Part shown: piece after piece, positions 43,642-64,000 of the stretch
Position numbering within the stretch: position 1 is the stretch's first letter
Layout of the letters: each line of letters starts with the position of its first letter
Virus record (IMG/VR): IMGVR_UViG_3300027792_000010
Length of the DNA stretch: 64,000 nt
Source of the DNA: a virus
Direction: 5' to 3' (one strand)
Translations under genes and position numbers: made by a program
Notes under the pieces: model-generated
The model's input: the letters and a program-made list of their open reading frames with translations, nothing else
What the model was told of the DNA's origin: nothing
Database searches by the model: none

Positions 43642-45063
43642 TCAAATTTTGTTTTTTATAGTTTCTACTAAATACTTTATCCTTTTCTCCTGAATGTCTC
43701 TAACTTTTGGGTCTGACTCCACTACCGTATTATGTATATAGCAAAACCAAAATAACTCTTCGTGGAACTTCTCCAAGTCTTTATACCACTTTTCTACTTT
43801 TGGATCAACATACTCATGATGTCTTTCCCATTTCAAATCAACATATGAAACCCAGTCATTTAACGATGAAGGCTTTGGCATCCCTCTTTTTACGCATTCA
43901 GTGTATACATCGGTATTGGGAGTAGGTATCAATTTTTTTATATTTACCTGGGCCATCCCATTCTCTAATAACAAATTAATCATTGTAATATACGTGCATT
44001 TTATGTCTTGTAAGGTTTCTTCTGGAAATCCCGCTATGAAATTGTAATTTACTATGATATCAAAATCTCTTAGTCTACGATTGATTGTAAGAACCATATC
44101 TGTTTTGTGCTTCTTACCAATTATTTTTAGCATCCTATCAGAACCAGTTTCAGCACTTATCCCTATAGTTTTTATTCCGCATTTTTGTAAAAGTTCTATA
44201 TGGATAGGTAACATATTATATAGTATCGTAACGGGAATAGATACATATACTTCAAACTTAAGATTAGATGCTATTATTGCTCTAATGTAATTCATAGCAT
44301 TTGTATTAACAAAAAAGTTATCATCAGCTATAACTAATGCTCTAAATCCTATATCCCATATATTCCTTAGATGCCTAATCATATTGTCTATACTCATGCA
44401 TCTGAATTTTGTTCTAAAGTTGTTCTGTACGCAATAGTAGCAGGAGAGGGGACATCCTCTCGTTATTTCTATGGTGGCTACTTTGTCTGAGCTAAATTTG
44501 TAAAAAGGATTTGTAGTAGGATTCTGAAATTTATCTAATGATAAGTCTTCGTAAGACAAAAGTGGTAATTCATCTAAATCAAAGTTCTCTGGATCTGCCT
44601 CTGTCTTTTGTACTTTTCCTTTTACTTTGTAGTAGATACCTGGAATTTTACTCAAATCTTCTTTATGCTGTATACTTAGTACTAACTTTGTTATCGTTCT
44701 TTCAAACTCACCAACACAAACTATATCTATATATTCATTCTCAATAGTTTGTTCTGGGGTGAGTGTCGGATGTATTCCTCCCCAGATTATAGTAATTCCT
44801 GGGTGCTTTTCTCTTATTTGTTTTGAAAGAGTGAGGGCCTCAGATATTTGAGGCCCTGTCATAACGCTAAACCCGCAACATACCGTATCATCTTTTATAT
44901 GGTCCTCAATATCATCTACAAGATCGATATTTGCGAAACCACTTGAAGTACAGTAAATCTCTGAAGATATGTTGCTCTTCTTAAGTATCGAGCTTAGGTG
45001 TAGTAATCCTAATGGAGGAGAACTTAGAGGATTATCTTTACAGGGGTAAATAAATAGTACCAT
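43642..45063 (-). CDS. B12-binding radical SAM protein
   Basis: PPLGLL.L, WGGIHPT, VGEFE, RGCPLSCYYC, ETGS, FIAGFPEET. Confidence 0.9.
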   Translation of the reverse strand: MVLFIYPCKDNPLSSPPLGLLHLSSILKKSNISSEIYCTSSGFANIDLVDDIEDHIKDDTVCCGFSVMTGPQISEALTLSKQIREKHPGITIIWGGIHPTLTPEQTIENEYIDIVCVGEFERTITKLVLSIQHKEDLSKIPGIYYKVKGKVQKTEADPENFDLDELPLLSYEDLSLDKFQNPTTNPFYKFSSDKVATIEITRGCPLSCYYCVQNNFRTKFRCMSIDNMIRHLRNIWDIGFRALVIADDNFFVNTNAMNYIRAIIASNLKFEVYVSIPVTILYNMLPIHIELLQKCGIKTIGISAETGSDRMLKIIGKKHKTDMVLTINRRLRDFDIIVNYNFIAGFPEETLQDIKCTYITMINLLLENGMAQVNIKKLIPTPNTDVYTECVKRGMPKPSSLNDWVSYVDLKWERHHEYVDPKVEKWYKDLEKFHEELFWFCYIHNTVVESDPKVRDIQEKRIKYLVETIKNKI

Positions 45064-45066
45064 TAA

Positions 45067-45510
45067 CTATCTCCACCAAGTTAATAAAATAGGCCCTATA
45101 TGGATGCCCTCACACCATTTGTACACTGTGCCTATATTTTTTCCATCTATAGGGCGTGTTACTATATGACAGCCGAATCCCCAATCAAACGGGGTGAAAT
45201 GGATTCCAACATCATTTATCTTATCATATACCTTATACCACCACTTTTTTTCTTTCTCTTTCCTCTTATTCTCAAACTCTGTATACTTTTTGTCTTCTAC
45301 ATATACATCGGGCTCTGCAGCTTTCATCTTGTCTAGTAACTTAATGATGTCCTCAAGATGGCTGTCAGAGAAGTCAAAACAAATCCCAGTACCCTCATCA
45401 TCCGCATTTCCCTCATCTACTTTAAAAGGCTCCCAGATTGTATATCCAATTCCATCAGGATACTTAACTTTCTCTCCACGCATTTTTCCAGATTTATGTA
45501 TATTTCTCAT
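45067..45510 (-). CDS. hypothetical protein
   Basis: ORF with overlapping start/stop. Confidence 0.6.
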   Translation of the reverse strand: MRNIHKSGKMRGEKVKYPDGIGYTIWEPFKVDEGNADDEGTGICFDFSDSHLEDIIKLLDKMKAAEPDVYVEDKKYTEFENKRKEKEKKWWYKVYDKINDVGIHFTPFDWGFGCHIVTRPIDGKNIGTVYKWCEGIHIGPILLTWWR

Positions 45511-51410: not shown

Positions 51411-51767
51411 CTACACTTTCCAGCTAAATATTTTTTCGGGCTCTCCTAAGAACTCTGTCTCATATTCCCATTCAGAACCTTCATAACTATGACTCAACCA
51501 ACTTCTGCAGTATATTTTACACTTATAGATCCCATGCTCAAATTTGAAGTCGTCATATTCAAAAAAGTATATCAACTCATCCTTCCAAAAAGACATATCT
51601 ACTTGGTCTTTATTTAAGATATCAAGTAGAAAGCACTCACATTCTCCGTTGCACCCGAACACAACAAAAGGGTCTTCATAACTGGGATGATTTTCTTCTT
51701 TAGCATTATCCATAGCTAATATCCCATCTAAATTTAATATGTCACTCATTTTTGATAATCCTCCCAT
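51411..51767 (-). CDS. hypothetical acidic protein
   Basis: ORF. Confidence 0.55.
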   Translation of the reverse strand: MGGLSKMSDILNLDGILAMDNAKEENHPSYEDPFVVFGCNGECECFLLDILNKDQVDMSFWKDELIYFFEYDDFKFEHGIYKCKIYCRSWLSHSYEGSEWEYETEFLGEPEKIFSWKV

Positions 51768-52573
51768 TCTTTAATGGCTAACCTATTAGCTGTTTCTACT
51801 ATAGGTACCAAATCAAGTGCATAGAGCCCACCACAGCTAAAACTATTAATCTCCATGAGGTAGTAGCTACCCCTGCTGAGGCATATATCAACTATGTACA
51901 TAGGATCAGGTTTGTACTCTTCCGCAGCTATTACATCAGCAAGCTCTTTAGCTTTAGGATCATAGCCTTCTTGAAAAGATAGTTTTCCATCCCTTTCATA
52001 CTGACACCCAGTTATTACTTTACCTTCAGCGCAGACGAATCTCCATTCCCCATCGATAATCTTAGGAGTAGAGATAATAACCATACTGTCGGGATCAGAG
52101 AACTCTTCTACCCAACGCCACAAGGAAGGCACATTATATTTGCTATATACTCCAGCTGTCCATGGTTTTAGTCCTGAACTCGGTCTAAAGAAAAGCTCTT
52201 CACGAACGAAACATTTGTCATAAAGCCAATCAAGTCTTCTTAGAACATCGGCTCTTGGGAGCATGACATACTCCCAGTTGAAGAGATATTTCCCGAAGTG
52301 AGCATAGTATCTGGTACATTCATAGTTTTTTGCTGTGAGCCAGGGTCCAGGAATCCATTGTTTTTCACGCTGAAGCTGCTGTGCAAGATTGATTGATCCT
52401 TGGAAGAGAACGCAATCGTTTCCCCCGAATATATCATAGGAGCCAGCCTGGAATGGAGTGTAGGTGATAACTTCAACATCACATCCTTGCCGTCTACATT
52501 CATCGGCAAGAGGACCGAATTTGTTGTCCGGTTCGAAATCTTCGATGACCCATTTTGGTCGTATACTAGACAT
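51746..52573 (-). CDS. ATP-grasp (DUF4343/R2K-like) protein
   Basis: FFRP..G.K.W.AG, EWRF, YIVDI, MEINSFSCGGLY. Confidence 0.8.
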   Translation of the reverse strand: MSSIRPKWVIEDFEPDNKFGPLADECRRQGCDVEVITYTPFQAGSYDIFGGNDCVLFQGSINLAQQLQREKQWIPGPWLTAKNYECTRYYAHFGKYLFNWEYVMLPRADVLRRLDWLYDKCFVREELFFRPSSGLKPWTAGVYSKYNVPSLWRWVEEFSDPDSMVIISTPKIIDGEWRFVCAEGKVITGCQYERDGKLSFQEGYDPKAKELADVIAAEEYKPDPMYIVDICLSRGSYYLMEINSFSCGGLYALDLVPIVETANRLAIKEWEDYQK

Positions 52574-52705
52574 CCTATGCTCCTACAGTTAAATGATTTT
52601 CTTAGATAATGAGTTTGATATACAGGTTGTACACCACTTGATAAAAAACGGATAATAGGTTTTTCCCAGGGGTCATCTGCTAACCACAGATTACTTCTCG
52701 GAGTT

Positions 52706-52918
52706 TCAAAAAAGTCTTTTATCATTACTTTGTTCATGTAATTTTTTATCCTCTAAAGATTTTAAATACTCCAGATATAGAAAGGATTTCCCAATGATCG
52801 GTGATCCATAAATAGCGTTAAAAGGTGGTACATACCAAGGATCATCTGAACGCCAGGAACGAGCACTCTCTCGATCCATTATAACTAATTGCCTACCTTC
52901 AGTATCTACATAGACCAT
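52706..52918 (-). CDS. WxxDDPW-family small protein
   Basis: WRSDDPW; AGGAG RBS. Confidence 0.65.
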   Translation of the reverse strand: MVYVDTEGRQLVIMDRESARSWRSDDPWYVPPFNAIYGSPIIGKSFLYLEYLKSLEDKKLHEQSNDKRLF

Positions 52919-53001
52919 TCGTAATCTCCTATATGATGGATATTTTCGTAGTGTTCCATTAATTCTTCTATTGTTTTTTTATATCATAGGAATCTATTAT
53001 C

Positions 53002-53061
53002 CTATTCAAAATCTTTCCTATCCCCCCAAGGATCATCGCTGTCCCAGGTTTCTTGAAGCAT
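53002..53061 (-). CDS. 19-aa WxxDDPW micropeptide MLQETWDSDDPWGDRKDFE
   Basis: AGGAGG and GGAG upstream of ATG; below ORF-track cut-off. Confidence 0.6.
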   Translation of the reverse strand: MLQETWDSDDPWGDRKDFE

Positions 53062-53329
53062 CTCTCCAGCCTCCTAAAGCCTCTACTAACTTTTTGGCTT
53101 CTTGATTTGATACTGACATCTCAAAAGTACTTGTATGCCCCCCATGAAAGTATCTAAAATCTACCAAGAACCAAGGATCGTCAGAGTACCACGGGGTCGA
53201 TAAATTGACAGTCATCGGAAAGGTGCTGAACCCATGATACTTCGAAAAATGAGGGACCTGTGCCACACCTGTGCCACAATCTACTCTTATAATCAACCAG
53301 GGGTCATCTGCTAACCACACTTGATCCAT
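53033..53329 (-). CDS. WxxDDPW-family protein with two motifs
   Basis: WLADDPW and WYSDDPW. Confidence 0.7.
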   Translation of the reverse strand: MDQVWLADDPWLIIRVDCGTGVAQVPHFSKYHGFSTFPMTVNLSTPWYSDDPWFLVDFRYFHGGHTSTFEMSVSNQEAKKLVEALGGWRDASRNLGQR

Positions 53330-53507
53330 ACTTACTCTCTAATATTAAGGGATCTTTCCTTAACTCCTCCATAGTAACATTTATTTCTTCCATCGAAGGC
53401 ATAGGAGGAACAATAATTGGCTTAAACCATCCCCAAGGATCATCAGAAAACCAAATATCGTGATTATAAACACATAAGGTTGGTTTAGATAACTTAATAG
53501 AACTCAT
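53304..53507 (-). CDS. WxxDDPW-family small protein
   Basis: WFSDDPW. Confidence 0.65.
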   Translation of the reverse strand: MSSIKLSKPTLCVYNHDIWFSDDPWGWFKPIIVPPMPSMEEINVTMEELRKDPLILESKYGSSVVSR

Positions 53508-53558
53508 AAAACTAATATACTATTTGGAAAACTCAAATTAAATAAGTTTCCAAAAGTC

Positions 53559-53852
53559 TTAGTTAGGGATACGAAATTTAGGAGGGCAATCTTGCTGGGA
53601 GGCACATAACTTTTTTTCAAACTCTTCTGCTTCTTTATCCCAATCTCTACCATCATATTGATGAAGTTTATCATAGGCACATGAAGCACAATAATATTCG
53701 AACTCATCCTCTCCTGTTGGAGAAGCCCATATCGGCTCCCCAATTACTGCTTCCTTGCACATACAATCGTAAGGATCTTCTACCTTGAAATTACACCTTA
53801 GAAAGTGCTCATCTAATTCTTCTTCCCTCGTGGTCATAATCCTTTCCTCCAC
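53559..53852 (-). CDS. hypothetical protein
   Basis: ORF; Cys pairs. Confidence 0.5.
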   Translation of the reverse strand: MEERIMTTREEELDEHFLRCNFKVEDPYDCMCKEAVIGEPIWASPTGEDEFEYYCASCAYDKLHQYDGRDWDKEAEEFEKKLCASQQDCPPKFRIPN

Positions 53853-53860
53853 ATCTTTGC

Positions 53861-54073
53861 TCAGCCTCCTGAAGTCTCAAAGTACATAGCTAACATAGCT
53901 TCTTCAGTTATCCAAGGATCGTCAGAAATCCAGATAACTTTAGTACTACCTAATAGATCTATAACTTTTGCTACCGCAGGATCTACTGAGCTATACATTT
54001 TTCTATAGTACCTTCTCTTCTTTAGCTCCTCTGATATCAAAGAATCGTCAGAATCCTGTAGTTTCATTAGCAA
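53861..54073 (-). CDS. WxxDDPW-family small protein
   Basis: WISDDPW. Confidence 0.6.
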   Translation of the reverse strand: MLMKLQDSDDSLISEELKKRRYYRKMYSSVDPAVAKVIDLLGSTKVIWISDDPWITEEAMLAMYFETSGG

Positions 54074-54389
54074 AAGCCTTTATATCATTATATGTTTCTT
54101 CATCTAAATATATAGTATTAGGTACTAAAGGAAAATTAGTAATACGATCAAAAGCTTCCATAATGTCGTTTATAACCCAAGGGTCATCTGAGTACCATAT
54201 CTTACCACATAGCGTATCTACTTTTATCAAATCACGATCTTTTAATAGGTCGTGATAAGAACCGTCATTAGACTTTGCTGTATCTAAGTTCCAATCAGCA
54301 TTTACGCCATATACAGAATAATCGCTAGGGCAGTTTCGCTTTGCTTCCTCATAGTTGTCCCACACTGTCCCTCCAGCATAATCTTTCAT
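54048..54389 (-). CDS. WxxDDPW-family protein
   Basis: WYSDDPW. Confidence 0.65.
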   Translation of the reverse strand: MKDYAGGTVWDNYEEAKRNCPSDYSVYGVNADWNLDTAKSNDGSYHDLLKDRDLIKVDTLCGKIWYSDDPWVINDIMEAFDRITNFPLVPNTIYLDEETYNDIKAFANETTGF

Positions 54390-54516
54390 GCGTCATGCGC
54401 CCCTTTTTCTTTGGTGTGCCTTGCTCTTTAAAGTAGGTTTCATAGTTTGTAGTGTGACCGATAGTGTAAATCATAGCAATAATATACTAATTAGGAAGGA
54501 AGTTTTAAATATAAAA

Positions 54517-54605
54517 CGGAAGGTACAGGATTTGAACCTGTGAAGGTATTTAAACTCCCTGACGGTTTAGCAAACCGTTGCAATAGGCCGCTCTGCCAAC
54601 CTTCC
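54517..54605 (-). tRNA. tRNA-Ser(GCU)
   Basis: ACGGT-TTGCTAA-ACCGT, long V arm, G73. Confidence 0.94.
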
Positions 54606-54645
54606 ATTATTTTTTCTTTATGTTTCTTTTGTCCATAATCGAAAA

Positions 54646-54722
54646 TGGTGGGAGTATCACGAATTGAACGTGAGACCTTTCGGTTATCAGCCGAACGCTC
54701 TAACCATCTGAGCTATACTCCC
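54646..54722 (-). tRNA. tRNA-Ile(GAU)
   Basis: TTCGG-CTGATAA-CCGAA, CCA. Confidence 0.95.
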
Positions 54723-54737
54723 TATAAGCTATTAGGT

Positions 54738-54813
54738 TGGTAGCGGAATGTTGGAGTTGAACCAACTTAACCAAGTTTATGAGACTCGGTGAGATGCCGA
54801 CCTCCCACCCGCG
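54738..54813 (-). tRNA. tRNA-Met(CAU), initiator-like
   Basis: CGCGGG start with C1 mismatch, loop CTCATAA, CCA; lacks the three G-C anticodon pairs. Confidence 0.8.
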
Positions 54814-54825
54814 ATGTATTTAAAA

Positions 54826-54896
54826 TAGTGAGAATCAGAATCGAACTGATCTAAACAGGATATGAGCCTGTTGAGGGGCCACTCCTCAATCTCACT
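54826..54896 (-). tRNA. tRNA-Met(CAU) (elongator Met or Ile2)
   Basis: ACAGG-CTCATAT-CCTGT. Confidence 0.85.
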
Positions 54897-54905
54897 GTAT
54901 GTTTA

Positions 54906-54981
54906 TGGCGGGGACGACGGGTTACGATCCCGCTCTCTTTGGCTTGACAAGCCAATGCTTTCCCGATTAAGCTACGTCCCC
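54906..54981 (-). tRNA. tRNA-Asp(GUC)
   Basis: TTGGC-TTGTCAA-GCCAA, G73, CCA; T loop ATCGTAA. Confidence 0.92.
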
Positions 54982-54991
54982 TAATATTTAA

Positions 54992-55474
54992 TTAATCCTC
55001 ACCTTCATAATCTATGATAGGTACTATTCTTACGTTCCTATCCTTATTGCCCCTAAGTATACGCTCAGCCTCTTTGTAACTATCGAATACTGTACTATCT
55101 ACAGTTCCTATTAAGGGGTCCAAAAATACATACCCTACTTTAAGACCTTGTTTCTTTAGATTCTCCAAAGCTGTATCTAAGTATTCTATCTTCTGCTTCT
55201 GTAATACAAATCCTATATTCAAATCAAAGACACGAACTAATTCATCATACTCTTTGTCTGGTAGGAATCCCTTCAAAAGGCATAAAGAACCTACGCAGCT
55301 TTCTAAGTATTTTCCGATTTTCAGAGAATGAAGTACATAGTAATAGCCATCCTCGTCTTCATCGAATCCTACTAATCTCACAACTTCGTGGAAGTCTATA
55401 AGTAGTTCTCCTTTATGTTTCTCTATAAACTCTAAAATCTCTGGCTTAGGATCTTTAAACTCTGATATGTCCAC
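54992..55474 (-). CDS. hypothetical protein inside tRNA array 2
   Basis: AGGAG RBS, GTG start. Confidence 0.65.
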   Translation of the reverse strand: MDISEFKDPKPEILEFIEKHKGELLIDFHEVVRLVGFDEDEDGYYYVLHSLKIGKYLESCVGSLCLLKGFLPDKEYDELVRVFDLNIGFVLQKQKIEYLDTALENLKKQGLKVGYVFLDPLIGTVDSTVFDSYKEAERILRGNKDRNVRIVPIIDYEGED

Positions 55475-55495
55475 TATATACTCCTAAGAAAAATA

Positions 55496-55571
55496 TGGTG
55501 CCGCCTTTCGGAGTTGAACCGAATTCTTTAGCTCTTCAGGCTAACGCAATCACCGGACTTGCTCAAGCGGC
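55496..55571 (-). tRNA. tRNA-Phe(GAA)
   Basis: TTAGC-CTGAAGA-GCTAA, CCA. Confidence 0.94.
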
Positions 55572-55621
55572 ATATAATTTGCCTTTGTAATTCTCTTACA
55601 TCAGATAGGCTATATTAAAAT

Positions 55622-55657
55622 AAAAAAGCCCCCGAACTTCTCAGTCCGGGGGCTTTT
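55622..55657 (-). terminator. intrinsic terminator of attenuator 2
   Basis: GCCCCCGGAC-TGAGAA-GTTCGGGGGC-TTTTTT; 5' arm can instead pair with GGTCCGGG (55674-55681). Confidence 0.88.
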
Positions 55658-55680
55658 ATAAGCTACTTGTTTACCCGGAC

Positions 55681-55758
55681 CTATACAATACTATCAAACA
55701 TACTATCAAAACTGATAGTATCGCTGTTGATGATAATGCTGAAAGTAGAGGTACACAT
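55681..55758 (-). CDS. 25-aa leader peptide of tRNA array 2 (MCTSTFSIIINSDTISFDSMFDSIV)
   Basis: 17 of codons 6-24 are cognate to the downstream Phe/Asp/Met/Ile/Ser(GCU) tRNAs. Confidence 0.85.
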   Translation of the reverse strand: MCTSTFSIIINSDTISFDSMFDSIV

Positions 55759-55798
55759 TGAAAATAGTTTTCCTTGAAAAAGTTTTTGTTCTGTCTTT

Positions 55799-55827
55799 AA
55801 TATACCACTTTGTAATACAAAGATCAA
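55799..55827 (-). promoter_or_regulatory. sigma70-type promoter TTGATC-N17-TATATT for leader 2
   Basis: near-copy of the leader-1 promoter. Confidence 0.8.
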
Positions 55828-55834
55828 ATAAATT

Positions 55835-56110
55835 TTAAGAATACATCAAAGTATCTGAAAGAGACTTAGGCATAGACATACTCCTCAGGTACCCACCACC
55901 ACCTGTCCCCTGGTGCTGAGTAGGCTTAATCGGGGCGTGAGTGCTATCACCCTGCACAACTGGATTGTAGTTCTGAGAGTTGTCTACAACGTTACCGCTA
56001 GTATTACCCATCTTTTGATCTCTTGGACTAGTTGTCCCCCGTCCTGTATTATTCTGCGTAAAACTTGCCATACCAGCAAAGACTACATCTACTGATTTAT
56101 CTGCTGCCAT
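55835..56110 (-). CDS. small low-complexity protein, putative late gene
   Basis: AAGGAG RBS; ATAATCTTTTAATA motif upstream. Confidence 0.6.
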   Translation of the reverse strand: MAADKSVDVVFAGMASFTQNNTGRGTTSPRDQKMGNTSGNVVDNSQNYNPVVQGDSTHAPIKPTQHQGTGGGGYLRSMSMPKSLSDTLMYS

Positions 56111-56279
56111 AATTATACTCCTTTACTAAACAAAAATTCAATACAATCACTTATATAATATATATTAAAAGATTATATGATTCAATTTATTTTGCTATAT
56201 CTAAAACTTTATTAACATCCTCATATGGAGTATCTTGACCTTATATTTCATCAGAGAACAAATTATTAGATAGGTCTTA

Positions 56280-56474
56280 TTAAACTAAAGGTTGAGGCTT
56301 GTTAATAGGCTCAATTAAAACGTAGGTACTATCCTCTTCAGTATTGTACCAAAAAATGAGTTTGCCATGATGCTCCGTAAAACAATCTAAAAGAGATGCC
56401 TTATTTCCACAAGGTTTTATCTTCTGATGCTTTTTTAAAGCCCTTTCAATTAACTCTTGTTTCAATTTATCCAT
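56280..56474 (-). CDS. small phage protein
   Basis: I.PCG.K..L.DCFT......FWYNT..DST. Confidence 0.55.
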   Translation of the reverse strand: MDKLKQELIERALKKHQKIKPCGNKASLLDCFTEHHGKLIFWYNTEEDSTYVLIEPINKPQPLV

Positions 56475-56566
56475 CTTGGTATCCTTACATAGTATACTTA
56501 AAAATTATCTGTATAAGTAGATAATTATAGTATTAGTCTAATTCTACCATTATCATCTCTAATATC

Positions 56567-57088
56567 TTATTGCCAACATTTTTCATAGTCTTTATTTATA
56601 CCAGAGATATATGCAAGTATATCATAAATATAGCTGTTAGGATTAATATATCTATTTACTTTTCTAAACTCTTTTTCGTCTAATCCTAAAAGTCTATTTA
56701 TGAATAAACCAACGGCACCACTTCTTGAAGTACCTGCGTCACAATGTACTACTAGTACACCTACATGTTCATCATTAAGTAACTTTACGAAATCTAGTAT
56801 CTTATGAGCATCTGTTTCATCAAACAAACGTAACCCAGAATCTAATTTTTTTGGGGTAATAGATTTTATTCTTTCAAACTGTTCTTTAGATATATCACCA
56901 AAACAAAGATTTAAAATGCTTTTGCAATTCATCCTATGCATGAGTTCTACTTTATCATCTGTAATTAGTTTCTCTGCAGGGGTGCTATATATAGAGATGA
57001 GCGCCCAACTTAGAGATGATATAGTCTCCTGATTCGTTATCACATCCGTAATAACTTTCCTCGGAAAAACACGTATATGCCTTATCAT
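56567..57088 (-). CDS. protein-tyrosine-phosphatase-like protein
   Basis: VHCDAGTSRSGA (CX5R), NPN. Confidence 0.85.
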   Translation of the reverse strand: MIRHIRVFPRKVITDVITNQETISSLSWALISIYSTPAEKLITDDKVELMHRMNCKSILNLCFGDISKEQFERIKSITPKKLDSGLRLFDETDAHKILDFVKLLNDEHVGVLVVHCDAGTSRSGAVGLFINRLLGLDEKEFRKVNRYINPNSYIYDILAYISGINKDYEKCWQ

Positions 57089-57870
57089 ACTGTTTTTACT
57101 TTCACTTTATAGGTTTTGTAGAAATCTCTGGTGATATTATGAAACTCTTCCGGTAGTAATTCTACAGTTTTTTGAGCAATATCTTTAGGGATTTCTTTAT
57201 AGAAAGCCTGAGCTATACCTCCGGCAATACATGCCATAGTATCCGCATCGCCATTAAGTCTTATAGCTTTTTTGATCGCGTCTATAAAGGAATCGGACTC
57301 AAGAAAACAAATGATAGATTCAGGTACTGACCCCTGACACGTCGCATCGAATTTGTAGGTCGGTGCGATATCTACCAGAGTACGATTAAGGTCATATCCA
57401 AAACTTTTTGATATGACTCTCTTAATCTCTTCTTTGGATTTCCCAATGCGTGCCATATAAACTGCTAAAGCTGTAGCTTGAGCACCTTTGATACCTTCTG
57501 GATGACTATGAGTACACTCTGCGCTTTTTTTAGCCTCTTCTAAGACCTTCCTAGGGTTATCAAAAGCATACCCTATAGGACTTACCCTCATGGCAGAACC
57601 ATTGCCAAAACTATTAAAAGGGGCATTAGAAGAAGAATCTAACCAATCTTGAAACATCCCGCCATATCCCCGACCTGGGTATCTATTACCGAAGTCTTTG
57701 TAACACTCACCATAGCTCTTCCCCGTTAGGATGGCTGAGCAGGTAGCGAAAGACATTACAGAGTCATCCGTGTAATCAGTCCCATCTGCAAACAATTCAA
57801 AATCATATACTTCTGTTTTCTTCCATTCATATGCACTCCCGATCACGTCACCTATGCAGGCACCCAGCAT
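57085..57870 (-). CDS. ADP-ribosylglycohydrolase (DraG/ARH family)
   Basis: G..IGD..GS.YE, TDDS, GNGSAMRVSP, THSHPEG, GDADT; ATG 57870. Confidence 0.92.
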   Translation of the reverse strand: MLGACIGDVIGSAYEWKKTEVYDFELFADGTDYTDDSVMSFATCSAILTGKSYGECYKDFGNRYPGRGYGGMFQDWLDSSSNAPFNSFGNGSAMRVSPIGYAFDNPRKVLEEAKKSAECTHSHPEGIKGAQATALAVYMARIGKSKEEIKRVISKSFGYDLNRTLVDIAPTYKFDATCQGSVPESIICFLESDSFIDAIKKAIRLNGDADTMACIAGGIAQAFYKEIPKDIAQKTVELLPEEFHNITRDFYKTYKVKVKTV

Positions 57871-58802
57871 GATATACCGCCTTTCACTCTTTCTTTTTCG
57901 TATCCCAACCATTCTTTCCACGATATCCAACCTTTATTTAGATATGTACGGCTAGGAAAAGAAGGTATAGTGATTGGTCTACTACCACTTTTACAAAAAC
58001 ATTCCCATTCGGTTTTACTTTGTATATTAAATTTTTTAATATATTCTTTAGCTTCTGAATAGGGCATAAAACCTGTTTTTAAGACTATTATACCTTTTAT
58101 TTTATAAAATTTATTATATTTTCTTAACAATTTTAAGCTACTATCTCTATACATGAAATCTCTTAATAGTATTGAATTATTGTTAGAAAACCTTGTGCTA
58201 TAATAAATGCTGTCTTTAGGTCTTGTATAGTCAAATAACTTTTCACCCTTTTTTCTAACTTTTATGTAAATAATACCGTGTATACCTTTTATGCTACTTT
58301 CTATTGCTTCTAATAATTTATATGCTAACTCTTTGCTCCCTGAAGTGAAATCTGTTTCAAGATTATTATTATCTTTTAGAATGCTCACGCTCCCATCTCC
58401 GTCAAAGTACCCTCTAATAAAGTCTGGTAAATATTCCTGAGGGACTGTTGGAAATCCAATATCTAAACTTTTTCTTTCTTTTCCTCCAAGATTTTTTATA
58501 TCTTCAATTATTTCTTTTGAGTAAATACATATAAAATAATTATTTTTACAAGTTTTCTTTATAGGATGATTAGATTCCATAACTTTTAAAATATTTTCTA
58601 ATATATATTTGTCATTTTTATGCTGGCTTATTCCAAAGCATTCTTTATCTATAAATCCATCGGCCCACCAAAATCCTAAAACATAGGCCATATCTTTAGT
58701 CCAAATTTTAAAAAAATCTTGATTAACGTTATATCTTCTTGCCCCCTGATTCCACTTATTTTTCCAACGTTCCAATTTTTCTGATTGTGCTTCTTTGCTC
58801 AT
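57852..58802 (-). CDS. LAGLIDADG homing endonuclease with C-terminal DNA-binding repeat
   Basis: AYVLGFWWADG, FIRGYFDGDG; PY.EAKEY...IP..P...Y..KGW.SW..WLG. Confidence 0.88.
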   Translation of the reverse strand: MSKEAQSEKLERWKNKWNQGARRYNVNQDFFKIWTKDMAYVLGFWWADGFIDKECFGISQHKNDKYILENILKVMESNHPIKKTCKNNYFICIYSKEIIEDIKNLGGKERKSLDIGFPTVPQEYLPDFIRGYFDGDGSVSILKDNNNLETDFTSGSKELAYKLLEAIESSIKGIHGIIYIKVRKKGEKLFDYTRPKDSIYYSTRFSNNNSILLRDFMYRDSSLKLLRKYNKFYKIKGIIVLKTGFMPYSEAKEYIKKFNIQSKTEWECFCKSGSRPITIPSFPSRTYLNKGWISWKEWLGYEKERVKGGISCWVPA

Positions 58803-58947
58803 CTTTCCCTCTATTTTCTTCCTCTATATAGCTATCAATTATCCTTCTTAAAAATTCTGCTTTAGAGATTCCCATCTCTTCAGATTTGTTTTTAAGAAAC
58901 TCTTGCTCTTTATCTGATAGACATATTTGAGTCCTGTTAAGTTTCAT
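58756..58947 (-). CDS. ribbon-helix-helix (CopG-like) protein
   Basis: RTQICLS....L...S...GISKAE.LRR.ID. Confidence 0.8.
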   Translation of the reverse strand: MKLNRTQICLSDKEQEFLKNKSEEMGISKAEFLRRIIDSYIEEENRGKDEQRSTIRKIGTLEK

Positions 58948-58989
58948 CTTACATCTCCATTACATCAAGTAGATGTTATTAATAGGTTA

Positions 58990-59691
58990 TTAAAGTTTAA
59001 CTATATTTTCATATAACATGTGGTATTTTCCAAAATCTATATTATCGTGCCAATGCCCACACCACAGGCTATTGAATGTAGTGTTTTGACAGACATGTTC
59101 TAAATATTTCTCGGTAGGATCAACCCTACCAATTTCACGACATAATCCTATAGACTTCAGGTATGTTTCGGCTATACTTGATGGAGCGGTATGAGCCAAA
59201 ATATAATCTACAGAATATTGGTGCTGCTCCAGATTCTGTAGCCCTAAATCCATCTCAGACCAACTTGGTATTTCTTCAGGCCACCATGACTTTCCTTCTG
59301 TCCTTGTAGCTTTATCTATACTTTGCGCGCCACCCATAACAAAGAATTTTTTACCCTCTATGGTATAGATGTGCCCTCTTTTAAGGTGAAAGATACTATC
59401 TGAGACCTTACCTACTTTACTCCCAAACATATCTATTTGTTCGAGGGCATATAGTCTGGGATGGTTCTCATGGTTACCACAAACAAATAATGTTGTAAAA
59501 GGTTTATTAGATAGCCACCAAGTCCAATAACTCTCTGTAGGGCTAGGGGTATTATCCCACACCAGCCCAAAGTCACCGAGAATGATTAGATAATCATTCT
59601 TGGTGAGCTTTACTCCTTCAGGCCACCTCTTTGCTGATAGCTTATGTATGTCGGTGTCACCGTGAGTGTCACCAGTTAAAAACGTCGCCAT
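58990..59691 (-). CDS. calcineurin-like metallophosphoesterase
   Basis: GDTHG, LGDFG, GNHENH, HT.P, CGHWH. Confidence 0.9.
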   Translation of the reverse strand: MATFLTGDTHGDTDIHKLSAKRWPEGVKLTKNDYLIILGDFGLVWDNTPSPTESYWTWWLSNKPFTTLFVCGNHENHPRLYALEQIDMFGSKVGKVSDSIFHLKRGHIYTIEGKKFFVMGGAQSIDKATRTEGKSWWPEEIPSWSEMDLGLQNLEQHQYSVDYILAHTAPSSIAETYLKSIGLCREIGRVDPTEKYLEHVCQNTTFNSLWCGHWHDNIDFGKYHMLYENIVKL

Positions 59692-59794
59692 TTTTATATA
59701 CCGCCTTAAGTATCATAGGATAAGGAGAACTTATTTTAATCACGTCACGCCAGGGGTCGTCTGCTTCCCTCACATCATCAGATAATATACTTTT

Positions 59795-59992
59795 TTACAA
59801 ATTAGTTCTACAAAGATTATAAGAGCGCTGGATAAAGTCAAAACGTCTTTCCTTAACCTGAGTCAAAGGGATCATTGGATTTTTACAGATTTCAAACAAA
59901 GGAGGTTTAAATCTATACAGCCTATTACCAAATAAATCATATATCCCATCAAACCAAGGGTCATCTACTTCCCAGACTTTATTATCTTTCAT
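59795..59992 (-). CDS. WxxDDPW-family small protein
   Basis: WEVDDPW. Confidence 0.6.
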   Translation of the reverse strand: MKDNKVWEVDDPWFDGIYDLFGNRLYRFKPPLFEICKNPMIPLTQVKERRFDFIQRSYNLCRTNL

Positions 59993-60150
59993 TTATACTT
60001 TAACTCTAATGAGAATATACTACTATGTTCTATACGCATAGGTACACACTACATCACCTATAATAAATAAAGGAACTTTATCTCGTATAAAACCATGATC
60101 ACTACACCAGGGGTCATCTGCTAACCATACTTTATTCGCTAATAGTTCAT

Positions 60151-60357
60151 CTATTGTTTTGATATATGACTCCTAGTAGTATTATCTTTATTATACATAG
60201 GTATCATTCCTTCAGGCAACTGTTGCACTAAAAAACATTTTCTGGCTATGGAACTATAGTCCATACGATTCATGAGAGGGGCTACCATTGCTTGTGCCAA
60301 CTTTGAAAAGTCTGGCATAGCCCAGGGATCATCAGCAAACCACAAATTTGTTTTCAT
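60151..60357 (-). CDS. WxxDDPW-family small protein
   Basis: WFADDPW; AGAGGA RBS. Confidence 0.65.
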   Translation of the reverse strand: MKTNLWFADDPWAMPDFSKLAQAMVAPLMNRMDYSSIARKCFLVQQLPEGMIPMYNKDNTTRSHISKQ

Positions 60358-60630
60358 ACATCCTCTTTATTATCTTTACAATTATCCGGCTTAGCAACAC
60401 TAGCTAACGCGATTAGATATCGATACAATTCATCGGGTGTTCGATTTGGTAAAGATTCTTGCAATCGAGTTAATTCTTTTGTAAAGTAGGCGACATCGAC
60501 ACCGAATCGATTTTTCATTGCTCAAGCTCCCGCAGCCGTTGCTGCATTTCCCGATATTTTCGTAGTTTTCGTTTTAGTATTATCAATCGAATAACTGAGA
60601 TAATGGATCTGATCATATGATACCTTCGAA

Positions 60631-61119
60631 TTATTTTGTTAGAAAAATAGCAGTTTTACAATCTTTTGTTATCGATTTTATGGTATCCAGCACATCACTA
60701 GGACAGTGTAAGAAGATTGCTGTATTTATTGAACCTGATGTTAACCATTCTTCTGCTTTATCTAAGGTAGCTGTTTGCAACGCAATAGTTTCGGATTCTT
60801 TGATAGGAACAATACATTGTTCAAAATCCCTTATAGAAAACCAATGAATATCTGAAGGGGAGATATCCAAACAAATACCGATGAGTCTATCTGCAAAATG
60901 CTCTACAATTCTTCCCCGTTCCCATAAAGGTGCGTTTGCAGGTACACCATTAACGATGCATGCTATAGGCTGGATAATTTTAACAGCGGTTCCTATTGGA
61001 TACTGTAAGGGAGCTACTCGAATATTAGGTTTGGATATTTTGATTTTGATATAGACTATACAGACAAGAATACTAATAATACCTAAGCTTACTACCAATG
61101 GATACGAAAAACTCAGCAT
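60631..61119 (-). CDS. membrane-anchored hypothetical protein
   Basis: N-terminal TM helix, AGGAG RBS. Confidence 0.6.
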   Translation of the reverse strand: MLSFSYPLVVSLGIISILVCIVYIKIKISKPNIRVAPLQYPIGTAVKIIQPIACIVNGVPANAPLWERGRIVEHFADRLIGICLDISPSDIHWFSIRDFEQCIVPIKESETIALQTATLDKAEEWLTSGSINTAIFLHCPSDVLDTIKSITKDCKTAIFLTK

Positions 61120-61128
61120 ACGATCTCC

Positions 61129-61641
61129 TTATTTATAACTATTTACATTTTCAGACACGTAAGTAACAGGAATACCTGCTTGTTTGAGCATTTCTTCGCT
61201 TTCTTGTGCGCATTGGTATTTCGATTCACAATGTACTGCAACTATACCAACAGAGATAATAAACATTGTGCATACCCGACAAGGTGTCATGCTGCAATAT
61301 AATGTACTGCCTGCTAAGCTAATACCAAGTTTGGCTGCTTGTAATATTGCGTTCTGTTCTGCATGAATTGTTCGGATACAATGCACAGTATATTCATCCG
61401 GCTCTAGCCGCAAAGAAACTTTTTGCTTAGTTAAAGGTGTAAGGTCGCCGTGAAATCTACCTTCATATCGATGACCTACCTCATCGCAATGACTTAATCC
61501 AGGAGGAGCACCAGCATATCCCGTTACTAAAATACGATTATCCCGAATGATTACACATCCTACTTTCCCTCGATCACATGATGACCTATCAGATATTGCT
61601 CGCATTACGGAAAAGAAATATTCATGCCATGTCGGTCGCAT
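61129..61641 (-). CDS. dCMP deaminase (ComEB-like)
   Basis: RP.W.EYF, RS.C.R..VG, TGY.G.P, HAEQNA, PC..C. Confidence 0.92.
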   Translation of the reverse strand: MRPTWHEYFFSVMRAISDRSSCDRGKVGCVIIRDNRILVTGYAGAPPGLSHCDEVGHRYEGRFHGDLTPLTKQKVSLRLEPDEYTVHCIRTIHAEQNAILQAAKLGISLAGSTLYCSMTPCRVCTMFIISVGIVAVHCESKYQCAQESEEMLKQAGIPVTYVSENVNSYK

Positions 61642-61695
61642 ACATACTCCTGGAGGTTAACCAAGGTAGCTAGCAGATGCCAGCTACCCATTTTG

Positions 61696-63546
61696 TTACG
61701 GTAAATAGACAATTGATTCTTTAACAGTAAATCGATTATTTAGATTTTCCGTCCAAACTACTTTAGCATAATCAGAGTACCTACCAACTTTAGGGTACTG
61801 ATAAGCAAAACCTGGGGACGTACCTAATGTTTGGGTAACCCAGCCACTTGTTTTATAGTATCCGAATTTAATACTGATGCTAGAATCTGGGTTCATCTTT
61901 TCCCAAGTAGCATTAAGGGATACACCAAAATTATTAATCGCATTAATAGAGCATGATTCTGTATCGATAGTATCCCGAAAGGATTTCCAGGAATTATTTA
62001 CATATTTTCTATGCACTAAGTACCCACGCTCGTCACCCACACCCATATTTTCCTTACCAGTCCAATATAAAAGATGAAGGGTATCAGATACCCGATTAAC
62101 GCTTACACCCATTACCCGAGTATTAGCATCTAGGGTTGTCACTGCTCCCCACGAAGTACCATTAAATATTCGATATCTAATAGGTTGCTTCCACTCACTG
62201 CAATCTTGGTTTATATACACCAACATCAGACTCTTTGTTGCAGGAGTTTGGCATACACTGAAAATGTATTGATTAGTTTTTCGAATATTATCGTATGCAG
62301 GATCTAATGTAATGTTGTCACCCGCTTGCTGTAATTCTAAGACTGGGCTAAATACACCATTCTTGTAAAACGTAGTCTGTATTTTAACTCCTACTTGTGA
62401 CTGAGATGCCCAAAAAACATGTGGAATACCCGAGGTCAAAATAACTTGACCTTGTTTTATGGAAGTATTTGGGGTGTTATATTCATAGACAAGAAGTCGG
62501 TTAGTCACAGTTAAAGAAAGAGAATCAATAGTAGTTAAATATAACTGTATGTTAGGAGGTGCATCAGTTTTCCAGAGCACATAAACAGTCGATGCCACTT
62601 TTATTGAATGTAAAAAAGTACTAGCCTTACCTGAATCGTAGCATAACGGACCATACCATAAAGAATTGTACCCATCTACTGACTTCCCTCGGTAGGAGTA
62701 GAATGTTAAGTCTGTTCGATTAGTTACAGAAGGATCATAGGTATTGGTAAAATTACAAACAGGGGTAGTTGGGGTGGGAGGTTTAATTAAGTCCAGCCTT
62801 TCAATTGATTGAATGGATGGAACACAATTATTTACTGCAAATGTTACAAGGGGGCCTGCTTGGTTTGTGGCATACCCACCAAATATAATTCTGCCTATGT
62901 TTGATAGCATTAGAGTGGAATTACAAGGTATAGACCAATGCATACCTATGATGATAATACTATTCGATTGGGGCTCAATAAAAATCCAATTATTTACGAG
63001 CGTAGGGTCGTCCCCAACAAGAATGGCATTTATACTATGATAAAATCCTTGTGAAGCCAAAGACACGGGATAAACAGGTAAATTAAATCGATTTGTTCCG
63101 TAATATGGCTCTGATAGGTCATTATAGTATCCGGTAAAATTGACATAAAACTGAATAGCAAAATTCCCACAAACATAATAAGGAAGATAAGGGTGATACT
63201 GTGTAAGGGATAGACATTTACTGACCCAAGATATCTTTTGCGCCTTGGTTAAATTATCCCAATCTCCTGGTAAATTACCTGATTGTAGTATTTGAATATC
63301 GGTTGAGGTAAGATAGTTATCAGCATCTACATCACCAAACCGATTAAACATCCCAAGATTAATTAATGATACGGCGGAATCAATGTCTAACTGATTAACT
63401 GACCCATCTTGATTAACATCACCCGATCCCCAATATGCTGTAGTTGGGTAAGGTCGATGAAAGGGATCATTTCCTTGCCATAAATCGTAGGCAATCGAAT
63501 AGCTCATTACTGGTAACAGGCATAAAAAGATAAGCACATTTTTCAT
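61696..63546 (-). CDS. exported protein with dockerin-like EF-hand repeats
   Basis: signal peptide; GDVNQDGSVNQLD and GDVDADNYLTSTD. Confidence 0.7.
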   Translation of the reverse strand: MKNVLIFLCLLPVMSYSIAYDLWQGNDPFHRPYPTTAYWGSGDVNQDGSVNQLDIDSAVSLINLGMFNRFGDVDADNYLTSTDIQILQSGNLPGDWDNLTKAQKISWVSKCLSLTQYHPYLPYYVCGNFAIQFYVNFTGYYNDLSEPYYGTNRFNLPVYPVSLASQGFYHSINAILVGDDPTLVNNWIFIEPQSNSIIIIGMHWSIPCNSTLMLSNIGRIIFGGYATNQAGPLVTFAVNNCVPSIQSIERLDLIKPPTPTTPVCNFTNTYDPSVTNRTDLTFYSYRGKSVDGYNSLWYGPLCYDSGKASTFLHSIKVASTVYVLWKTDAPPNIQLYLTTIDSLSLTVTNRLLVYEYNTPNTSIKQGQVILTSGIPHVFWASQSQVGVKIQTTFYKNGVFSPVLELQQAGDNITLDPAYDNIRKTNQYIFSVCQTPATKSLMLVYINQDCSEWKQPIRYRIFNGTSWGAVTTLDANTRVMGVSVNRVSDTLHLLYWTGKENMGVGDERGYLVHRKYVNNSWKSFRDTIDTESCSINAINNFGVSLNATWEKMNPDSSISIKFGYYKTSGWVTQTLGTSPGFAYQYPKVGRYSDYAKVVWTENLNNRFTVKESIVYLP

Positions 63547-63686
63547 TGTTGGCTCCTTGATTGTGGTTTAGAGGTGTTATCTTGCGCTCATAATTGAAAA
63601 TTTTTAGTCATTTGTCGGTCTCCTTTTTAATAGTATTTCGTATGCCCTTTATTACTATCAGCATAAAAATTATATGGTTTCTAATA

Positions 63687-63800
63687 TTATAACCTTATTG
63701 TTTTTATAATAGCTAAGGGATTAACTATACCAATACCTATGTTATCTCTAATAACAAATCCAATCGGTCTACCCCAAGGATCATCAGCTTGCCATATCAT
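63687..63800 (-). CDS. 37-aa WxxDDPW peptide MIWQADDPWGRPIG...
   Basis: motif at residues 3-9; below ORF-track cut-off. Confidence 0.55.
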   Translation of the reverse strand: MIWQADDPWGRPIGFVIRDNIGIGIVNPLAIIKTIRL

Positions 63801-63930: not shown

Positions 63931-64000
63931 CCGTTCTGAAAAACTTATAAAATCTTTGCAAGACTCATGTTTTCTTCCTGCTTCATAGAAACAGCTTCTT
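63931..64000 (-). mobile_element. right end of an IS607-like element running off the window
   Basis: GCTGTTTCTATGAAGCAGGAA...AAGTTTTTCAGAACGG. Confidence 0.65.

Follow-up and report, generated by a model that had tools for sequence, protein, structure and literature searches.

Short shared peptides and expanded families of small proteins have both been described in large phages. In T4, the short CTS peptide is the sole common feature of the diverse, fast-evolving proteins IPI-III and Alt and is read by one partner (PMC3012670). Phage G carries about 35 copies of a zinc ribbon, a lineage-specific expansion of a small protein (PMC7824862). The locus described here resembles both. As with the T4 CTS, diverse small phage proteins encoded in a plastic region share only a short peptide, and as in the jumbo-phage expansions, many diverged copies of a small module are found in one giant phage. 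The CTS, however, is found only at the N-terminus, where its roughly 10 aa lead up to a prohead-protease site, and bears no relation to the capsid protein, whereas the tag reported here comes from a capsid hairpin and may also occur internally or twice in one ORF. No K/R-x-A|S or L/I-x-E site follows the tag consistently, and the tagged ORFs, unlike the CTS genes, have the same promoter type as the neighbouring tRNA and metabolic genes. The jumbo-phage expansions in turn involve whole small domains, while only 7-9 residues, taken from a structural protein, are kept here. The TolB-binding epitope of colicin E9, W-S-S-E-N-N-P-W, is a disordered mimic ligand that competes with the native partner. 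It shares with the tag a Trp-x-Ser-acidic/amide-Pro-Trp stretch, but the spacing differs by one residue, and its target is periplasmic whereas the tagged ORFs lack signal peptides. Orphan cassettes of polymorphic toxins (CDI VENN, Rhs DPxGL) were considered and rejected, since the 82 kb examined contain no large motif-carrying gene and the cargos correspond to distinct segments of a single protein rather than to alternative C-termini. Our searches returned no literature on a WxxDDPW tag array, no second genome with such an array and no relative of this phage.

The window, meaning the whole 64-kb stretch of DNA that was analysed, contains DDPW 13 times in a six-frame scan, always on the minus strand and between 52666 and 63785; 12 of the 13 have a W three residues before. 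The variants are WLADDPW (three copies), WRSDDPW, WDSDDPW, WYSDDPW (two), WFSDDPW, WISDDPW, WEVDDPW, WFADDPW, WQADDPW and READDPW, so that all 13 copies listed in an earlier note on this DNA were recovered, each in its place and with exactly the variant given. At the nucleotide level, 13 matches to GAYGAYCCNTGG fall on the minus strand of the window and none on the plus strand. The expectation from base composition is 0.02 per strand, and the sequence shuffled 200 times held 0.035 matches on average and never more than 1 (about 0.04 expected overall). A search for variants found none of the near-misses DEPW, W..DD.W and W...DPW. Three further copies lie beyond the window end on contig JGI Ga0105099_10000004 (190,913 bp; L083 positions 3580, 5325 and 7274), which brings the total to at least 16, and the 8.8 kb that follow them hold no tag. 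When sites were ranked by a position-weight scan, the 16 copies reached 25-37 bits and the next site 8.9. An assembly artefact is ruled out because the array sequence is 100% identical in assemblies from two other runs. The gene callers of JGI and Logan also predicted most tagged ORFs. Nine ORFs have the tag start at residue 3-22 and three at residue 47-64, and one ORF carries two. The features of the window are given below, with MCP' denoting a putative second copy of the capsid gene.

63687-63800, minus strand: ORF Z, 37 aa; tag WQADDPW at 63774-63794, the remainder matching the last two strands, at the C-terminus, of the capsid protein (MCP' about 249-291).
60151-60357, minus strand: ORF A, 68 aa, starting at an ATG with a good SD; tag WFADDPW at 60322-60342, then MCP' about 19-73, ending in TAG.
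60026-60172, minus strand: open frame B of 49 codons, flanked by pieces A and C; tag WLADDPW at 60107-60127.
59795-59992, minus strand: ORF C, 65 aa; tag WEVDDPW at 59954-59974, then MCP' about 74-130, ending in TAA.
59783-59797, minus strand: promoter-like motif AAAAAGTATATTAT between C and D, repeat family D9.
59669-59773, minus strand: ORF D, 34 aa, GTG start; tag READDPW at 59750-59770.
54048-54389, minus strand: ORF E, 113 aa; an unrelated N-terminal part of 63 aa, tag WYSDDPW at 54177-54197, then MCP' about 158-203.
53861-54073, minus strand: ORF F, 70 aa, TTG start; tag WISDDPW at 53912-53932, repeat D18.
53304-53507, minus strand: ORF G, 67 aa; tag WFSDDPW at 53433-53453, its ATG 5 nt past a GTATATTA promoter-like motif (53513-53527).
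53033-53329, minus strand: ORF H, 98 aa; two tagged units of about 42 aa, WLADDPW at 53297-53317 and WYSDDPW at 53171-53191.
53002-53061, minus strand: ORF I, 19 aa (MLQETWDSDDPWGDRKDFE); tag at 53026-53046, GGAGG/GGAGAG ahead of the ATG.
52706-52918, minus strand: ORF J, 70 aa; tag WRSDDPW at 52835-52855.
52573-52737, minus strand: ORF K, the first ~55 codons of the frame 52240-52737; tag WLADDPW at 52666-52686.

The coding strand has 22 copies of the promoter-like motif GTATATTA and the other strand four, mostly upstream of genes, and the promoter-like GTATATTAT stands 5-8 nt ahead of the ATG in three tagged ORFs; SD sites precede others. Several stops are supplied by neighbouring elements: the TAA of ORF C comes from the A-tract of the promoter-like AAAAAGTATATTAT, and ORFs G and H each end at a TGA within the following tag (GA-TGA-C for G). 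The copies at 59750 and 60107 indeed lack an ATG, as had been remarked. The former, in which R replaces the first W, has an in-frame GTG and belongs to ORF D, which overlaps the start of a metallophosphatase gene. The latter, in frame B, has no ATG, GTG or TTG; an AGGAG lies 6 nt ahead of an in-frame ATC, and the codon-usage score of frame B, 0.36 per codon, is that of real genes. The proposed host range of 19 to about 165 aa holds at its lower end only, since the 19-aa ORF is confirmed but the 165-aa frame (52240-52737) is genuine just for its first ~55 codons, our ORF K. This ORF lies directly upstream of, and runs into, an R2K ATP-grasp gene (51746-52573), and the whole frame scores just 0.04 per codon because most of it overlaps the ATP-grasp gene out of frame. 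Atlas structure predictions for two tagged ORFs were of low confidence.

The carrier proteins had been called otherwise unrelated, which proved wrong: no fewer than three of them, and probably four, represent one HK97-type capsid gene in ordered segments. Judged by sequence homology, ORFs A, C, Z and probably E are pieces of an HK97-fold major capsid protein of the phage G gp27 type (PF25209, phrog_2522, PDB 6WKK). They are homologous to consecutive parts of that protein, and the collinear pieces cover capsid residues ~19-73, 74-130, 158-203 and 249-291 (Pfam PF25209). When an HMM built from 105 close capsid proteins was searched against 3886 fragments, the four best of the 3886 in two capsid HMM searches were all tagged ORFs. 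ORF A, whose segment extends from the N-arm to the first E-loop strand, matches the major head protein phrog_2522 (E 7e-6) and HMM positions 25-70 (E 5e-14), and tblastn pairs it with phage G gp27, the Tunturi_5 MCP and a huge uncultured phage. ORF C, comprising the second E-loop strand, the P-domain strand and the start of the spine helix, matches phrog_2522 (E 0.004) and HMM positions 88-125 (E 2e-13). Removal of the stop-to-tag insert makes the A-C junction seamless: joined, the two give a single unbroken match to HMM 25-125 (102 residues over 101 positions, 102 bits), with 59-70% identity to the nearest full-length relatives. Frame B sits where the E-loop tip would be, and placing it between A and C splits the capsid match and lowers its score. 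ORF E, collinear with A and C, ranks fourth of the 3886 fragments in both capsid HMM searches, and hhalign puts MCP 158-199 onto its residues 68-109 (P 0.0027). In ORF Z (HMM positions 251-286, E 1e-6 among the 3886 fragments; tblastn match with phage G gp27 residues 250-278) the homology begins upstream of the ATG and continues through the tag, TTFMIWQADDPWGRPIGF aligning with teltvlsaddpkartigf.

The native capsid site reads LSADDP[KR] in 91 of the 120 closest relatives and DDPW in none of the 120, it forms a strand-turn-strand in the AF2 model of a relative, and the native S-A-D-x-P turn of the gp27-type protein aligns with the tag. The tag is this strand-turn of the capsid protein, V-L-S-A-D-D-P-K/R, with two positions occupied by Trp. 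Several other copies keep the strand that follows the turn (by alignment, partly by eye). Capsid similarity is detectable in only four of the 15 tagged frames; ORF D resembles the capsid protein only from tag to native site (VREADDPWRDVIKI vs VLSADDPRNRTIGF), and none was detected in ORFs F and J. We found no continuous capsid ORF of ~290 aa. The pieces, 28-57 residues each, lie in separate frames over 9.7 kb; compared with the gp27 type, an ORF holds at most ~57 of ~290 residues and stops, promoters and unrelated genes intervene. HMM positions 1-24, 131-157 and 204-250 were not found in the region, leaving ~40% of the capsid protein undetectable.

Across the copies, identity is 1.00 at the non-wobble positions of the core, 0.48 at its wobble positions and 0.30 in the flanks (random 0.27). 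All nine non-wobble core positions and the final TGG are unchanged in 16 of 16 copies. Core variation is confined to wobble positions, proline is encoded by CCT, CCC, CCA and CCG, and the small residue of the tag by GCN, TCN and AGY, serine thus coming from both codon families; this bears out the earlier proposal that selection acts on the peptide and not on a DNA site. The tag copies must be old, because their synonymous sites and flanks are saturated, and the invariance of the non-synonymous core positions despite this saturation points to strong purifying selection on the peptide itself. Tag frames have codon-usage scores of 0.14-0.64 against 0.28±0.07 for real genes, and off-frame open stretches score -0.03±0.14. 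On the evidence of the sequence, the tagged ORFs are translated now or were until very recently. A DNA or RNA site (an operator, a recombination site, or a target of a nuclease or guide RNA) that is readable as peptide by coincidence could account for the single orientation of all copies, for the 21-mer that is identical in three of them and for the end of a TnpB gene 150 nt upstream of copy Z. It is nevertheless extremely improbable, and we reject it on the strict 3-nt periodicity of the variation, the use of all four Pro codons with TCN, AGY and GCN alternating at one position, and the lack of any common RNA structure among 16 folds of 121 nt (z-scores -2.5 to +1.0); moreover, the two TnpB loci have no flanking sequence in common. 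The array might also be decaying debris, a redundant capsid copy broken by duplicative insertion of its own hairpin segment, with functionless ORFs and a motif that only appears conserved through copying or gene conversion. Some copying or conversion at the DNA level is indeed indicated by the three identical 21-mers, whose identity ends exactly at the motif edges. The break points are arbitrary, one falling in the middle of the spine helix, copies B and D have no ATG, and ORF F contains a decayed copy, DSDDSLISEE, 42 codons upstream of its tag. We still regard debris as unlikely: nine non-wobble positions and the TGG are invariant although wobble sites and flanks are saturated, and gene conversion is a poor explanation since it would homogenise the wobble sites too. 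The position-weight scan found no intermediate copies besides the one in ORF F, and every tagged frame has gene-like codon usage.

The seamless fit of A and C could mean that the fragments are a working capsid gene or variant in pieces, rejoined by bypassing, frameshifting, read-through, splicing or ligation with the tag as joining signal. The inserts start at a stop codon and five of them, at 35-72 nt, fall in the size range of the T4 gene 60 and mitochondrial bypass elements, in which likewise an in-frame stop comes first and coding resumes right after the insert; an amber suppressor tRNA and an RNA ligase are encoded nearby. Bypassing was rejected, however, because the codons before the gaps (CAA, ACA, TTG) differ from the terminal TGG on which translation would land; nor is there a conserved hairpin, it is the peptide that is kept at the 3' end of the insert, and other gaps span kilobases. 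Amber read-through was rejected as well: reading TAG as Q fails to join the capsid pieces despite the suppressor tRNA(CUA), as TAA and TGA stops remain, and long genes of the window contain no internal in-frame TAG. We reject a self-splicing intron or other known ribozyme too, since an Rfam scan of 21.8 kb (E<=1) returned only tRNAs and chance matches and RNA folding gave no stable or shared structure. With fragments separated by up to 5.5 kb containing promoters and unrelated genes, the C-terminal piece upstream of the N-terminal ones and ~40% of the protein undetectable, a gene in pieces is very improbable. Ribosome arrest, or a leader peptide regulating downstream genes, had been suggested too and would suit a short invariant peptide that often falls in the first 25 codons, in one case of a 19-codon ORF. 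The suggestion gained no support, and we rate it as highly improbable: the motif lies 7-90 codons from the ORF end and at very variable distances from the next gene, it occurs twice in one ORF and within the native capsid segment, and no conserved RNA switch structure follows it. The tag and its leader could instead form a pro-sequence that a protease cuts right after the second Trp, releasing peptides of 7-59 aa. All conserved residues are N-terminal of a fixed boundary, the residue after W is free (A, C, F, R, V, I, G, L, Y, E, N), the capsid pieces restart immediately past W, piece A begins near the KTAG/KLAA sites of relatives, and ORF H would yield two peptides like a multi-core precursor. 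Processing is nonetheless improbable, for no protease with Trp at P1 is evident in the 82 kb examined and in Z the tag is simply one of the internal hairpins of a structural protein. The R2K.2 and R2K.3 enzymes, whose targets are unknown, are predicted to act as protein-modifying peptide ligases, and some genomes link them to ADP-ribosylglycohydrolase (PMC4431377). The two Trp-framed Asp carboxylates of the tag might be ligated to an amino acid or peptide by the R2K ATP-grasp enzyme encoded after the G-K cluster, given that seven tags lie within 900 nt immediately upstream of, and running into, its gene and that an ADP-ribosylglycohydrolase gene is 5 kb away. This is decidedly improbable, gene adjacency being its sole basis and nine tags lying 7-18 kb from the enzyme gene.

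In summary, we tentatively favour a translated tag that would imitate a capsid hairpin and serve as the recognition element for one common partner. The tag would descend from one P-domain beta-hairpin turn (V-L-S, A-D-D-P-K/R) of a phage-G-type HK97-fold capsid protein, a second gene copy of which, MCP', would once have lain in this accessory region. Inserts that start at a stop codon or close to one, and whose far end is the tag in the frame of the piece that follows, would have divided MCP' into small ORFs, each with a frame of its own. About a dozen other small ORFs also have the tag at their head or in their interior, often together with the strand that comes after it. Its partner may be a factor that recognises the hairpin on the real capsid, such as a phage assembly factor or a host defence protein that senses capsids, or else the R2K ATP-grasp peptide ligase encoded just after the densest tag cluster. 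A docking, decoy or adaptor function appears the most plausible, in which the tag would let many different small peptides, capsid pieces included, present one capsid-like hairpin.

The motif array described in the earlier note is real: DDPW occurs 13 times in the six-frame translation of the window, on the minus strand only and always between 52666 and 63785, and 12 of these copies have a Trp three residues upstream. The DNA pattern GAYGAYCCNTGG gives 13 minus-strand matches and no plus-strand match in the window, while shuffling gives a mean of 0.035. Past position 64000 we traced the array on locus L083, which covers the end of the window, reverse-complemented, and a further 9.5 kb, and found three further copies (L083 3580, 5325 and 7274), giving 16 in total; the next 8.8 kb contain none. 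A weight-matrix scan places the 16 copies at 25–37 bits and all other sites at or below 8.9 bits, and a search for near-miss variants found none. The extended consensus of this tag is [L/V/I]-W-x-[A/S]-D-D-P-W, and one 19-codon ORF encodes little beyond it, the 19-aa peptide MLQETWDSDDPWGDRKDFE. Two tagged ORFs, L083 3511-3771 and 7214-7393, are clear paralogues, each directly following a tRNA-Gln gene and a promoter motif; the former carries the internal tandem duplication YLWEAE-YLWEADDPW.

The source is an uncultured giant phage. Over 12.3 kb the sequence matches the JGI metagenome contig Ga0105099_10000004 (190,913 bp) at 100% identity and is found, again 100% identical, in Logan assemblies from two sequencing runs; it is therefore not an assembly artefact. 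A close relative was not found in the phage GenBank collection. Within the window there are 17 tRNA genes and many auxiliary genes, among them purM, an R2K ATP-grasp, an ADP-ribosylglycohydrolase, a LAGLIDADG nuclease, a dCMP deaminase, two TnpB genes and one for a dockerin-bearing 616-aa protein. The R2K-clade ATP-grasp gene (51746-52573) and the ADP-ribosylglycohydrolase gene (57085-57930) share a 6-kb stretch, and an operonic linkage of these two is reported in some Firmicutes (PMC4431377). The LAGLIDADG nuclease ORF is free-standing (57852-58802) and shares about 80 nt with the 5' end of the ADP-ribosylglycohydrolase ORF. Just upstream of the array lie a ClpS homologue (L083 1229-1516), a PRPP synthetase (L083 123-1064) and an ABC transporter set (L085 4961-8846) of a substrate-binding protein with an OmpA domain, a permease and an ATPase.

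What is selected in the copies is the peptide rather than a DNA site, as had been proposed. The nine non-wobble core positions and the final TGG do not vary among the 16 copies. At the three core wobble positions pairwise identity averages 0.48, a value near saturation for two states; in the 30-nt flanks it is 0.30, against 0.27 for random sequence. All four Pro codons (CCT, CCC, CCA, CCG) are used, and the small residue is encoded by GCN, TCN, AGT or AGC. Saturated wobble positions and flanks around an invariant core indicate that the copies are old and their amino-acid sequence under strong purifying selection, which argues against recent copying or general gene conversion. The exception is an identical 21-mer common to three copies, with identity stopping exactly at the motif edges, so that some short-patch copying occurs as well. 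The folds of the sixteen 121-nt stretches around the copies have ordinary z-scores and no common structure, and an Rfam scan returned tRNAs only, with no intron or ribozyme. With core variation confined to wobble positions and no shared RNA fold, the idea that the motif is a DNA or RNA site is hardly credible. The tagged frames have gene-like codon usage (0.14–0.64 log-odds per codon, compared with 0.28±0.07 for real genes and −0.03±0.14 for off-frame open stretches), and two gene-calling pipelines predict most of them as genes. At 52240-52573 (minus) the frame of tagged ORF K continues without a stop for about 110 codons, out of frame over the R2K ATP-grasp gene, which is unusually long for this AT-rich genome; since its codon score there is about zero, this overlap is probably not coding.

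The view that the tagged proteins are otherwise unrelated did not hold, because ORFs A, C, Z and, weakly, E match ordered parts of one capsid protein. In PHROGs, two adjacent tagged ORFs match consecutive parts of one major head protein family, with one further weak match only among the tagged ORFs, while a Pfam search of ten tagged ORFs returned nothing. By tblastn the two adjacent ORFs are tied to phage G gp27, the major capsid protein of Tunturiibacter phage Tunturi_5 and a huge uncultured phage, and the reverse search of those capsid proteins against the window added a 37-aa ORF (63687-63800) as the C-terminus. With each of two capsid HMMs that we made, one on 122 and one on 105 members of the family (Pfam PF25209; solved relative 6WKK), the top four among 3886 stop-to-stop fragments are all tagged ORFs. 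The matches are as follows.

Tagged ORFs matching the capsid family (window coordinates)
60151-60357, minus strand: piece A, HMM positions 25-70, E 5e-14
59795-59992, minus strand: piece C, HMM positions 88-125, E 2e-13
54048-54389, minus strand: piece E, HMM positions 164-200, weak match, hhalign P 0.0027
63687-63800, minus strand: piece Z, HMM positions 251-286, E 1e-6

In all four the capsid segment begins directly after the tag. When A (tag to stop) and C (tag onward) are joined, they give an unbroken match to positions 25-125 (102 residues over 101 positions, 102 bits); with unit B kept between them the match breaks in two and scores lower. A once-continuous capsid gene has thus been cut by inserts, each of which starts at an in-frame stop, or no more than a few codons from one, and ends in the tag, in frame with the piece that follows. 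Mapped onto the AF2 model of a close relative, the A/C junction falls between the two E-loop strands and C ends inside the long spine helix, so that, judged on this model, the break points do not look designed. The remaining eleven tagged frames have no capsid similarity detectable by HMM or hhalign. Further segments assigned by eye to D, F, G, J, K and the ORF upstream of Z were supported by neither method and were dropped. Fragments of the capsid gene's neighbours, such as the decoration protein, are not present. An alignment of the family shows the N-terminal signature IKTAxGRAKLAAS. Comparison with the 120 full-length capsid proteins closest to piece C suggests that the fragments have a closer relative than the capsid protein of the phage itself; we treat them as a putative second copy of the gene, MCP'.

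The tag itself can be traced to the same protein. In piece Z the homology continues through the tag, with TTFMIWQADDPWGRPIGF aligned to teltvlsaddpkartigf. This native site reads LSADDP[KR] in 91 of the 120 closest relatives, MSADRPD in the Tunturi group and ADKPE in phage G, and forms a strand end, a turn and the next strand in the AF2 model; DDPW occurs in none of 240 family members. The tag is thus a copy of the capsid P-domain hairpin turn in which Leu and Lys/Arg were replaced by Trp. Copy D aligns to the family over the tag and native site only, and by eye a strand-like h-h-I-R-x-D is retained after the tag in B, K, G and H.

That the gene is merely in pieces and rejoined upon expression is highly unlikely, with bypassing, TAG read-through, introns and RNA structure all rejected. 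Five inserts (35–72 nt, stop to tag end) recall T4 gene 60 by their size, but the codons preceding the stops (CAA, ACA, TTG) do not match the terminal TGG. Reading TAG as Gln leaves the pieces separate, because TAA and TGA remain, and splicing lacks an Rfam intron or ribozyme and a common fold. The other gaps between capsid pieces span 3.5–5.5 kb with promoters, tRNAs and unrelated genes, and the piece from the C-terminus is found upstream of those from the N-terminus. A tRNA with anticodon CUA, an amber suppressor labelled Pyl by ARAGORN, is encoded on the array strand about 2.5 kb past the window end (L083 6938-7010), 85 nt upstream of tRNA-Gln(CUG), and TAG may be translated as an amino acid in some of the phage's genes. 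No internal TAG interrupts a long gene of the window; TAG is the stop codon in 7 of 45. At 43642-45510 (minus) a 147-aa ORF stops at TAG and the in-frame ATG of a 473-aa radical-SAM-like ORF follows immediately; amber suppression would join the two. The TnpB (IS605 OrfB) genes at 28998-30257 and at L083 8346-9602, the latter ending 150 nt upstream of piece Z, are 23% identical and have no accompanying TnpA. A TnpB/IS605 link is unsupported, because the two loci share no DNA by which element ends and any guide could be defined.

A heptapeptide that stays invariant while its 16 contexts, one of them a 19-codon ORF, are otherwise saturated is best accounted for by a recognition tag bound by one partner, a reading we hold tentatively. 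Since the tag reproduces a hairpin of the capsid protein and has real capsid pieces among its cargos, the partner may be a recogniser of capsid protein, either a defence protein by which the host senses capsids or a factor in phage assembly. In logic, the nearest known analogue is the T4 capsid targeting sequence, which is all that a diverse set of internal proteins has in common (PMC3012670); its defining features, a strictly N-terminal position and a protease site thereafter, are not shared by the tag. Another candidate partner is the R2K ATP-grasp ligase encoded right after the densest tag cluster, from a clade of predicted protein-modifying ligases without known targets (PMC4431377); that the tag is its substrate seems very improbable. 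We consider it unlikely that the tagged ORFs are non-functional debris of a dismantled capsid gene, doubtful that the tag is a processing signal, and scarcely probable that it is a ribosome-arrest peptide, as the earlier note had offered beside docking, decoy and adaptor roles. ESM Atlas structures of two tagged ORFs gave no usable lead.

A more far-reaching version of the recognition tag, and a rather improbable one, is that hairpin tag and real capsid pieces form a capsid-mimic set that occupies a capsid-recognising protein, as trigger-mimic decoys or dominant-negative fragments. The target could be, for example, an abortive-infection sensor with which the host detects capsids, or the machinery by which a rival phage-G-like phage is assembled, and the ORFs would be transcribed from the promoter type of the neighbouring tRNA and metabolic genes. 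We know of no description of such a principle of counter-defence or interference. On their coding strand the whole window and L083 carry 22 copies of the promoter-like motif CCAAAAAGTATATTAT, against 4 on the opposite strand. Examples are found at window positions 59790, 54487, 53520, 47225, 43623, 38411 and 22253, and one copy lies between pieces C and D. In four cases, three of them tagged ORFs, ATG follows after only 5–8 nt, a leaderless-type arrangement.

A second genome with the array was not found in IMG/VR, among 5.8 billion proteins or among the JGI/ENA metagenome matches listed. Scans of IMG/VR with the DNA pattern gave 82 single matches, which is chance level, and no arrays, and ORF A matched only itself among the 5.8 billion proteins. 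Scans of metagenome and viral contigs for two motifs 124–154 nt apart returned, among the metagenome matches listed, only unrelated DDPW-containing proteins, the phage's own contig not being among them.

Unrelated matches of the paired-motif scans
Q/P-rich gut-bacterial protein: DDPWNQPQ repeats
Marine lipoproteins: HDDPWDxI repeats
Prophage tail protein; DNA repeats

Three marine metagenome contigs (L148, L150, L137) encode lipoprotein-like proteins with 9–14 tandem repeats of G-K-x-x-H-D-D-P-W-D-x-I, and Y/H-DDPWT-x-INEGAVG is the repeat in a small membrane protein of a phage (L217), so that (D/E)DPW repeats are met in other settings too. Searching the literature for DDPW gave nothing relevant, nor did we find an account of a tag at the head of successive pieces from a second capsid gene. 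The array is seen in a single uncultured phage genotype, which is the main limit, and the finding is thus a well-supported oddity of that genotype.

It is rare for small phage proteins that are otherwise diverse to carry a short tag in common, and those tags that are understood have been useful; the T4 capsid targeting sequence, for example, was turned into a tool for packaging foreign proteins. The tag belongs to this theme, with an unusual yet traceable origin. Should the tag be a ligand, it could bind an immune protein that senses capsids or a factor in the assembly of phage-G-like giant phages. If the pieces are instead debris, the locus would be a clear record of a structural gene that was dismantled and its parts reused as small ORFs.
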